Shown here piece by piece: positions 23,516 through 25,870 of a stretch of DNA of 64,000 nucleotides. The notes below the pieces were generated by a model, which was given only the letters and a program-made list of their open reading frames with translations, did no database searches and was not told the DNA's origin. The stretch lies in NCBI RefSeq assembly GCF_003334355.1, contig NZ_QOWP01000007.1; one strand, written 5' to 3'. Position 1 is the stretch's first letter; each line of letters begins with the position of its first letter. The translations under genes and the position numbers were made by a program. Source of the stretch: Escherichia coli. Its GTDB lineage: Bacteria; Pseudomonadota; Gammaproteobacteria; Enterobacterales; Enterobacteriaceae.

Positions 23516-24736
23516 TTAACCCTGCAACAGACGAATCAACAAAGAACCGTTATACATCGCGTCTTTTACCAGTGCAGCGCCTGCCATCGTGCCCTGGTTA
23601 GAAAACTGAGTACTCTCAACGCTGATGTGCTGACTATACGCAGGAAGGGCCTGCTGAAGGATGCTGTCTGAGATGACCGGGAAGAGGATATCTGCCGCTT
23701 TACTTAACGGTGAGCCAATCAGTATTTTTTGTGGGTTAAATAAATTCACCATGATGGCAAGAATGCGCCCGACATGCGCGCCCACCCCGGTAATGATGTC
23801 TTTTGCCAGTAGATCGCCGCGCAATGCCGCCTGACACAATGAGTCCACGGTTAACGGTTGTCCATGTAACATCGAGCTCATGGATTGATTAAGACGCAGC
23901 TGTGCCAGCTCAAGAATACTGTCCACGCTGGCGATGGTTTCGAGGCAGCCGTGATTCCCGCAATAACAGCGTTTCCCATACGGGTCGACCTGTGTGTGGC
24001 CTATTTCCACGAGACTACTGCTGCCTGCGTGTAGCAGATGACCATCGGTAATGACGCCCGCCCCCACGTTGTGATCGATAACCACCTGAATCACATCGCG
24101 CGCCCCGCGTGAGGCACCAAACAAGGCCTCTGCCATCGTCCATGCGCTGATATCATGCTGAATATAAACCGGAACGCCGGTATGCTGCTCCAGCGCCTCG
24201 CCGAGCGGCATCTCTTTTACATCCTCGTAGAACGGCATGCGATGTACAATACCATTTTCCGTATCAATAATTCCCGGCAAGGTTATGGCAATCGAAGTTA
24301 GACGCTCAAGTTTTTTCTGGTGGCGGATAAAAAACTGATCGATATGGGAAATAATACGATCCAGCAATGGCAAGTCATCTTTTAACGCCAGTTCCTGCGA
24401 CTCTTCCACCACCAGTTTGCTGCTCAGATCGCGCAGAGCAAGGAAAATCTCCCCGCGACTAATGCGCAGAGAAAGATAGTGCCAGGCTTCAGTTTCAACC
24501 ACCAGCCCCACCGCCGGACGGCCACGGTTCCCCGCTTCTTTGATTTCCAGCTCTTGCACCAGGTGTGCTTCGAGCATCTCACGGACAATTTTAGTGATAC
24601 TGGCAGGAGCCAGTTGCGCCAGACGGGAAAGATCGATACGCGAGACTGGACCAAGCTGATCAATCAGGCGATAAACCGCGCCCGCGTTGGTCTGCTTTAT
24701 TTGATCAATGTGCCCAGGCTGGTTTTCAGCAACCAC
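23516..24736 (-). CDS. mlc: ROK-family global regulator Mlc (DgsA)
   Basis: 406 aa MVAENQPGHIDQIKQTNAGAVYRLIDQLGPVSRIDL; GTG start. Confidence 0.92.
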   Translation of the reverse strand: MVAENQPGHIDQIKQTNAGAVYRLIDQLGPVSRIDLSRLAQLAPASITKIVREMLEAHLVQELEIKEAGNRGRPAVGLVVETEAWHYLSLRISRGEIFLALRDLSSKLVVEESQELALKDDLPLLDRIISHIDQFFIRHQKKLERLTSIAITLPGIIDTENGIVHRMPFYEDVKEMPLGEALEQHTGVPVYIQHDISAWTMAEALFGASRGARDVIQVVIDHNVGAGVITDGHLLHAGSSSLVEIGHTQVDPYGKRCYCGNHGCLETIASVDSILELAQLRLNQSMSSMLHGQPLTVDSLCQAALRGDLLAKDIITGVGAHVGRILAIMVNLFNPQKILIGSPLSKAADILFPVISDSILQQALPAYSQHISVESTQFSNQGTMAGAALVKDAMYNGSLLIRLLQG

Positions 24737-24747
24737 CGCATACTCCC

Positions 24748-24770
24748 TATATTTTCGCGCTCCGAAATAA
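24748..24770. promoter_or_regulatory. Candidate Mlc operator (TATATTTTCGCGCTCCGAAATAA) just upstream of mlc
   Basis: AT-rich arms TATTTTCG / CGAAATAA form an inverted repeat around a CG-rich centre, resembling Mlc/NagC-type sites; mlc is autoregulated. Confidence 0.4.
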
Positions 24771-24870
24771 TCTGTAGGCTATGGTGAAGCACTTCAATAC
24801 GTGTCGTCAAATTTTTACTTAGGCATGTGATTAACAGCACATTTTTCGGGCTTTTTCGCTGAAATTTCCC

Positions 24871-25764
24871 TCACCTGAGAGCATTCAGCAGATGAATACG
24901 AAAGTTACGCGCAGCCGGACTTTGTTCATGATGTTTCGGCCAGACCAACCACATTTCAGAAACCGCATCCTCTTCAGCAATCGGCACCCAGCGCATTTCG
25001 TTGAGCTGAACACGTTTAAATGACGCAGGCAAAATTGAAACACCCAGACCGGCGGAAACCAGACCGATGATGGTCATTGCCTCGCCCACCTCCTGAGTGA
25101 TGACGGGCGTCAAATGGTAACGTCGCATCAGCCCGAGAATATCGTCATACAGCCCTGTCCCGACGTGCGGATCAAAAAAGACAAAGGGTTCTTTCGCCAG
25201 TTCAGCCAGCGTTACATTCGGGTTATTTGCCAGGGGATGATCGTGCGGGATCATCGCCATAAGCGGTTCATGGACGATGACTGCGTGTTCAAGCGACTCC
25301 GGTAACGCTGTGTTACGCAGCAATCCCATATCCAGCGTTCCTTCAATGAGCGGAGCGATTTGCTCGCGAGTGTTCATTTCGCGGGTTTGTAAATGGACAT
25401 CAGGATAATCACGGCGAAACAGCGATAACGTATCGGACACCGCCCGAATAAAAGGAGCCGACGAAGTAAAACCAATGCGCAACTCCCCCGCTTCACCCTG
25501 ATGCAGCCTTTCAGCGCGAGCGGCAGCGTCATCCACCATAGACAGGATTTGCCGACTATCTGCAAGAAACTGTTTTCCTGCTGCCGTCAGCAATACACTG
25601 CGATTGGTTCGTGCCAGCAGTCGGGCACCAATTTGTTGCTCCAGCGCCTGAATCTGCTGACTTAGCGGCGGTTGCGAAATATTCAGGCGGGCAGCGGCGC
25701 GCCCGAAATGCAGCTCTTCCGCAACAGCAACAAAGTAACGCAGATGACGAAGTTCAATATTCAT
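24871..25764 (-). CDS. ynfL: LysR-family transcriptional regulator YnfL
   Basis: 297 aa; N-terminal HTH MNIELRHLRYFVAVAEELHFGRAAARLNISQPPLSQQI. Confidence 0.88.
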   Translation of the reverse strand: MNIELRHLRYFVAVAEELHFGRAAARLNISQPPLSQQIQALEQQIGARLLARTNRSVLLTAAGKQFLADSRQILSMVDDAAARAERLHQGEAGELRIGFTSSAPFIRAVSDTLSLFRRDYPDVHLQTREMNTREQIAPLIEGTLDMGLLRNTALPESLEHAVIVHEPLMAMIPHDHPLANNPNVTLAELAKEPFVFFDPHVGTGLYDDILGLMRRYHLTPVITQEVGEAMTIIGLVSAGLGVSILPASFKRVQLNEMRWVPIAEEDAVSEMWLVWPKHHEQSPAARNFRIHLLNALR

Positions 25765-25870
25765 ATTTAAAACATCTTATTTGAGATTATTAATATATTA
25801 GACAGAACAATTCGATTTTCCTACCCTATGTATAAGCCTGATCTACAGGCATATTTAGCAAGGATTTCAA

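Follow-up and report, generated by a model that had tools for sequence, protein, structure and literature searches.

Introduction

Operators of the ROK-family repressor Mlc are 23-bp quasi-palindromes of imperfect dyad symmetry, in which only TT at -6/-5 and AA at +5/+6 are fully conserved and the stretches from ±7 to ±11 are rich in A and T (PMC1874608, PMC4288165). The outermost of these positions is informative about which repressor is involved, as Mlc-type sites have A/T at ±11, which the RGRP motif in the linker of Mlc recognizes, whereas C/G at ±11 is NagC-type and is found in the higher-affinity NagC sites (PMC4288165). Mlc is in turn controlled by protein sequestration, with unphosphorylated EIICB(Glc) capturing the repressor and displacing it from its DNA sites (PMC1874608). 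According to the literature, Mlc also represses "mlc itself" and the gene has a binding site for its own product; mlc is transcribed from two promoters that are regulated by CRP-cAMP, with P2 also being read by sigma-32, and its -10 element is far from consensus and the promoter is weak.

We analysed a 64-kb stretch of E. coli DNA (hereafter the window), in which an earlier note, made from the letters alone, had pointed out a palindromic, AT-rich element just upstream of mlc. Whereas the literature supplies autoregulation, the pair of promoters, a self-binding site, and EIICB(Glc) sequestration, our own analysis addresses the sequence of the element, how well it obeys the operator rules, where it lies, and how far it is conserved. 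From these together, we consider it very probable that the element is the single operator by which Mlc represses transcription of its own gene. Such an operator is already a known feature of E. coli K-12, and it was reportedly described by Decker et al. in 1998 (Mol Microbiol 27:381), Plumbridge in 2001 (NAR 29:506), and Shin et al. in 2001 (JBC 276:25871). In locus, gene, and autorepression role, we found no difference between the element and the operator reported for the E. coli mlc (dgsA) promoter. The finding is therefore correct but ordinary and carries little weight as a discovery, because papers from 1998-2001 onward already report that Mlc regulates itself via a site in the mlc promoter; the element is of value as a positive control, in which a sequence-only reader placed a known operator to within one base. 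A full-text search of the literature for the operator core sequence, on either strand, returned no match.

The element and its genomic setting

The element and the features immediately surrounding it are as follows.

24749-24771, minus strand: 23-bp probable Mlc operator, ATTATTTCGGAGCGCGAAAATAT on the mlc-sense strand, dyad centre at 24760
24753-24767, no strand: perfectly self-complementary part, TTTCG-N5-CGAAA, the single match to this pattern in the window
24743-24747, minus strand: GGGAG, resembling a Shine-Dalgarno sequence, 6 nt before the GTG and directly downstream of the operator
23516-24736, minus strand: mlc (dgsA) coding sequence, 406 aa, GTG start, encoding a ROK-family repressor with an RGRP linker

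Read directly from the sequence, positions 24748-24770 are TATATTTTCGCGCTCCGAAATAA, and the near edge lies 12 bp from the G of the mlc GTG (24736, minus strand), with 11 nt in between. The sequence and the open reading frame (ORF) coordinates thus both bear out the location originally proposed. The exact boundaries were right to within one base, as the canonical 23-bp register is shifted one base to the right, to 24749-24771, which is the sole register that puts TT and AA at the invariant ±5,6 positions. The inverted arms that had been described, TATTTTCG and CGAAATAA, are indeed complementary at 6/8 positions, but the symmetry is imperfect and its perfect part is confined to TTTCG (24753-24757) and CGAAA (24763-24767), an inverted repeat of 5 paired bp around a 5-nt spacer. 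Over the whole operator register, 14/23 positions are self-complementary. With perfect arms of just 5 nt, the element escaped an inverted-repeat finder that used 6-nt seeds.

The site conforms closely to the rules for Mlc operators. TT occupies 24754-24755 and AA occupies 24765-24766, all ten arm positions from ±7 to ±11 are A or T, and the outermost pair is A at -11 and T at +11. Together with the imperfect dyad, these features support the resemblance to Mlc/NagC-type operators that the earlier note had claimed.

The mlc ORF is the only long ORF adjoining the element and is annotated in RefSeq as "sugar metabolism global transcriptional regulator Mlc" (K-12 b1594, "DNA-binding transcriptional repressor Mlc"). 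The locus arrangement mlc-ynfL is found in 5,422 of 5,426 complete E. coli genomes, and 5,420 of the 5,426 contain, at ≥99% identity, the 501 bp surrounding the element, with mlc on one side and the LysR-type gene ynfL on the other. Compared with K-12 MG1655 (offset +1,643,828), the window differs at 1 of 2,801 bp; no base differs between the two in the mlc-ynfL intergenic region, and the K-12 counterpart of the operator is NC_000913.3 1668577-1668599. The sole difference from MG1655 lies at window position 23658 (A for C on the plus strand), where it replaces Arg (CGx) by Leu (CTx) at codon 360 of Mlc. It should also be noted that ynfL, whose stop is at 24871, shares the minus strand with mlc and that no terminator-like hairpin was predicted within 24737-24870, ahead of the mlc promoter; transcription may therefore read through from ynfL into mlc.

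Conservation among Enterobacteriaceae

Species-representative genomes were scanned with the Mlc protein, which yielded 80 loci with 85-99% protein identity from genera including Escherichia, Citrobacter, Salmonella, Enterobacter, Kosakonia, Phytobacter, Leclercia, Lelliottia, Raoultella, Klebsiella, and others. A match to the strict Mlc-type pattern (WWWWWTT-N9-AAWWWWW) was present 34-36 nt before the GTG in 80/80 of these orthologous mlc loci, and the operator accordingly constitutes a phylogenetic footprint that is kept at the orthologous position throughout. We also aligned 81 distinct mlc upstream regions with MAFFT and calculated the mean column entropy of each region, with the following results.

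Operator: 0.22 bit, the lowest of the intergenic region
Flanks of the operator: 0.45-0.53 bit
Leader, 24737-24748: 0.51 bit
Next 29 bp: 0.53 bit
Distal intergenic region: 1.40 bit
First 60 nt of the mlc coding sequence: 0.29 bit

Within the operator, TTATTTCG and AAAAT are invariant in all 81 aligned regions, while the core varies (CGGAGCGCG, CGAAGCGCG, CGAAGCTCG, CGAGCTCAA, and others), and the TACAGA immediately upstream of the operator is poorly conserved. Invariant AT-rich arms around a drifting core are what is expected of an operator for a dimeric helix-turn-helix protein. As a control, we examined a second strict Mlc-type match (TATTTTTTGTGGGTTAAATAAAT, 23723-23745), which falls in the coding sequence of mlc, in its 3' part and ~1 kb away from the operator. 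This match was retained in only 19/80 orthologues and is therefore probably due to chance.

Promoter region and leader RNA

Two further features upstream of the operator are relevant to its function.

24776-24810, minus strand: mlc core promoter region, with conserved TTGACG (24810-24805) and TTGAAGTGCTTCACCATAGCC (24796-24776)
24826-24841, no strand: CRP-like box TGTGATTAACAGCACA, one mismatch to TGTGA-N6-TCACA, ~73 bp upstream of the operator centre

In the alignment of 81 sequences, the spacer between the conserved TTGACG and TTGAAGTGCTTCACCATAGCC blocks is not conserved, and the operator sits between these promoter-like blocks and the GGGAG, which is likewise conserved and presumably serves as the Shine-Dalgarno sequence. 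TTGACG (-35) and a weak -10, CACCAT (24786-24781), are likely the P1 elements, and TTGAAG-N13-CTACAGAT is a possible sigma-32-type P2. A scan of 24650-24950 for consensus sigma-70 promoters and terminators found nothing, which agrees with the literature on a weak, non-consensus mlc promoter. The TGTG and TCACA halves of the CRP-like box are invariant in the 81 aligned upstream regions, and the box presumably corresponds to the CRP site already known for these promoters. The mlc promoter is not mentioned in the CRP SELEX paper, and no mlc/b1594 start site was present among the supplement rows listed for Kim et al. 2012.

If the operator centre is taken as 24760, P1 transcription would start near 24775, downstream of CACCAT, and P2 transcription would start near 24763, inside the operator and downstream of TTGAAG-N13-CTACAGAT, which would put the centre of the CRP box near -71 of P2. 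These placements use positions from Shin et al. (2001), who reportedly mapped P2 initiation to +13 and the Mlc site to +16, both counted from P1, and we take their site near +16 to fit a centre of 24760 together with the conserved weak -10 CACCAT at 24786-24781.

Given this arrangement, the conserved block could matter mainly as promoter or leader, either as the P2 start region or as a hairpin in the mRNA, close to the Shine-Dalgarno sequence, with an effect on translation or stability, and the palindrome would then be incidental. The site does overlap the putative P2 start, falls within the P1 transcript, and ends 1 nt from GGGAG, and the minimum-free-energy fold of the leader contains a 5-bp hairpin. 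However, the 51-nt leader folds with only -6.2 kcal/mol compared to a shuffle mean of -8.15 (z = +0.92), 164/200 shuffles fold at least as well, and the centroid structure is almost unstructured. The RNA hairpin reading was rejected on the grounds that the leader folds no better than shuffled sequence. Likewise, the conservation is two-armed, symmetric, and obeys the TT/AA rule in 80/80 loci, the remainder of the leader (24737-24748) shows weaker conservation, with 0.51 bit, and an overlapping promoter alone cannot account for an invariant downstream arm that lies between the start site and the Shine-Dalgarno sequence. We therefore regard this explanation as very unlikely, even though the overlapping P2 promoter and leader could account for part of the conservation. 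A search of the region against Rfam found no family match.

Distinction from NagC operators

NagC operators, such as those of nagE-nagB and galP, are bound by a paralogous ROK repressor and resemble the mlc site in their overall layout and in the invariant TT/AA positions. Thus, the site might be a NagC operator or one shared by NagC and Mlc, in which case mlc would respond to N-acetylglucosamine instead of, or besides, its own product. In favor of this, the NagC and Mlc logos are "essentially indistinguishable" and overexpression of either protein results in heterologous repression, but there is no cross-regulation at physiological protein levels (PMC4288165). Position ±11 is also at odds with NagC, since it is C/G in NagC sites, notably the stronger ones, and A/T at the mlc site as well as in 80/80 orthologous loci; neither the mlc site nor any of its 80 orthologues has C or G there. 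Moreover, the Mlc protein encoded in the window contains the RGRP linker motif (..AGNRGRPAVG..). Based upon the A/T pairs at ±11 and this linker, the site can be classified by its sequence as Mlc-type rather than generically "Mlc/NagC", and regulation by NagC appears highly improbable.

Comparison with other E. coli Mlc operators

To place the mlc operator among its relatives, we compared it with the K-12 ptsG, manX, malT, and ptsH upstream regions, in which Mlc sites were located by pattern. This identified TT-N9-AA sites with AT arms at ptsG (2), manX (2), malT (1), and ptsH (1), and these six are presumably the Mlc sites listed by Plumbridge in 2001. The ptsG, manX, malT, and ptsH P0 operators are all 23-bp quasi-palindromes with TT-N9-AA and arms that are AT-only or nearly so, and they likewise have A/T at ±11. 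The principal difference resides in the core. The mlc operator has C-4 G-3 and C+3 G+4, giving TTCG..CGAA in both halves, while most of the other half-sites have A-4 C-3 and G+3 T+4, giving TTAC..GTAA, although CGAAAT-type half-sites occur in ptsH and manX too. In addition, the mlc operator is single, whereas ptsG and manX have two sites each. Thus, the comparison with the ptsG and manX operators that the earlier note had suggested confirms a common TT-N9-AA framework and AT arms, but not a common core.

The consequences of the unusual core were evident from a palindromised 23-column matrix built from only the six pattern-located sites, with the mlc site left out. With the full matrix, the mlc site scored 7.8-10 bits and ranked 21-30 of 63,978 window positions, three adjacent registers scored about alike, and the score was below the best obtained in shuffled windows (mean 12.7). 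The poor rank is explained by a penalty that falls entirely in the core, due to TTCG..CGAA in place of the usual TTAC..GTAA. With an arms-only matrix, whose columns were picked after seeing the full-matrix result, the mlc site ranked first of the 63,978 positions. A strong phylogenetic footprint would therefore have been missed by a small matrix derived from other Mlc sites, and the sole mildly non-textbook aspect of the locus is the core behind this difficulty, which is atypical and yet conserved.

From its sequence, the mlc operator is an atypical and probably weaker Mlc site, which would fit the modest autoregulation reported. A more far-reaching suggestion is that it represents a distinct, deliberately weak class of Mlc site, with a TTCG-N5-CGAA core that does not change across Enterobacteriaceae and on which the start of the sigma-32-dependent P2 would lie. 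Such a core might be jointly constrained by the tuning of Mlc affinity (only ~2-fold autoregulation) and by heat-shock promoter function, or it might be read by a second factor. This proposal is speculative and we consider it rather unlikely.

Chance expectation in the window

TTTCG-N5-CGAAA has 1 match in the 64-kb window versus 0.15 expected, and at least 1 match occurred in 15/100 shuffles. The Mlc-type pattern has 3 matches versus 0.69 expected, with at least 3 occurring in 5/100 shuffles. By themselves, these raw sequence statistics are weak and not significant in 64 kb, and therefore the case beyond chance rests upon location and conservation. In the 134-bp intergenic region upstream of mlc, only ~0.0014 matches would be expected, a value (0.69 x 134/64000) that ignores the 59% A+T of the region. 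A functionless AT-rich palindrome produced by chance would be in keeping with the nonsignificant pattern counts and with a full-matrix score under the maximum reached in shuffles, but it can be dismissed as barely credible, since position and strict pattern are both kept in 80/80 orthologous loci while the neighboring bases drift, the same-pattern match in the coding sequence decays to 19/80 orthologues, and a self-binding site of Mlc is reported in the literature. Thus, the element is beyond chance, as shown by where it lies and how it is conserved rather than by pattern statistics.

Proposed mechanism of mlc autoregulation

The proposal that the element is placed where it would autoregulate mlc is well supported by its fixed distance from the start codon in 80/80 loci, its standing as the most conserved block of the intergenic region, and the literature on self-repression. 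Direct binding of Mlc at exactly these bases is probable from secondary citations. For autorepression by Mlc, we envision that the dimer-of-helix-turn-helix unit would recognize both AT-rich arms along with the invariant TT at -6/-5 and AA at +5/+6, and that the RGRP linker would read the A/T pairs at ±11. The operator would then occupy the initially transcribed region, following closely on P1, a weak sigma-70 promoter, and covering the start site of P2, which sigma-70 and sigma-32 both read, such that bound Mlc may hinder open-complex formation or promoter escape, blocking initiation at P2 and escape from P1. Steric blockage would be the mode of repression if the putative start sites are right. 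During glucose uptake, dephosphorylated EIICB(Glc) would hold Mlc at the membrane, the operator would be vacated, and mlc would become modestly derepressed, while the conserved CRP box ~73 bp upstream could supply a cAMP input. We also searched 24737-24900 for a second operator that might support looping and found none; the 134-bp intergenic region has no other TT-N9-AA site with AT arms, and the mlc operator is therefore without a partner for looping.

Other features of the window

Several additional features were observed outside of the mlc upstream region. The best full-matrix Mlc-like match in the window is located at 61920-61942 (TTTTATTTCAGGCCGAAAAATGA), with a score of 15.7 bits that is within the shuffle range; it fails the strict pattern and overlaps the start of a 193-aa ORF on the plus strand (61939-62520). 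The second-best full-matrix match is an AT-rich quasi-palindrome at 25776-25798 (CTTATTTGAGATTATTAATATAT) in the divergent ynfL-ynfM intergenic region. At the homologous position, 24/80 orthologous loci contain the strict Mlc-type pattern, and this element, instead of being an Mlc site, may be a box for YnfL (LysR-type). A full-length match to the small RNA DicF (Rfam RF00039, 76.7 bits) is present at 4073-4124 on the plus strand, which points to a Qin-type cryptic prophage region at the left of the window.
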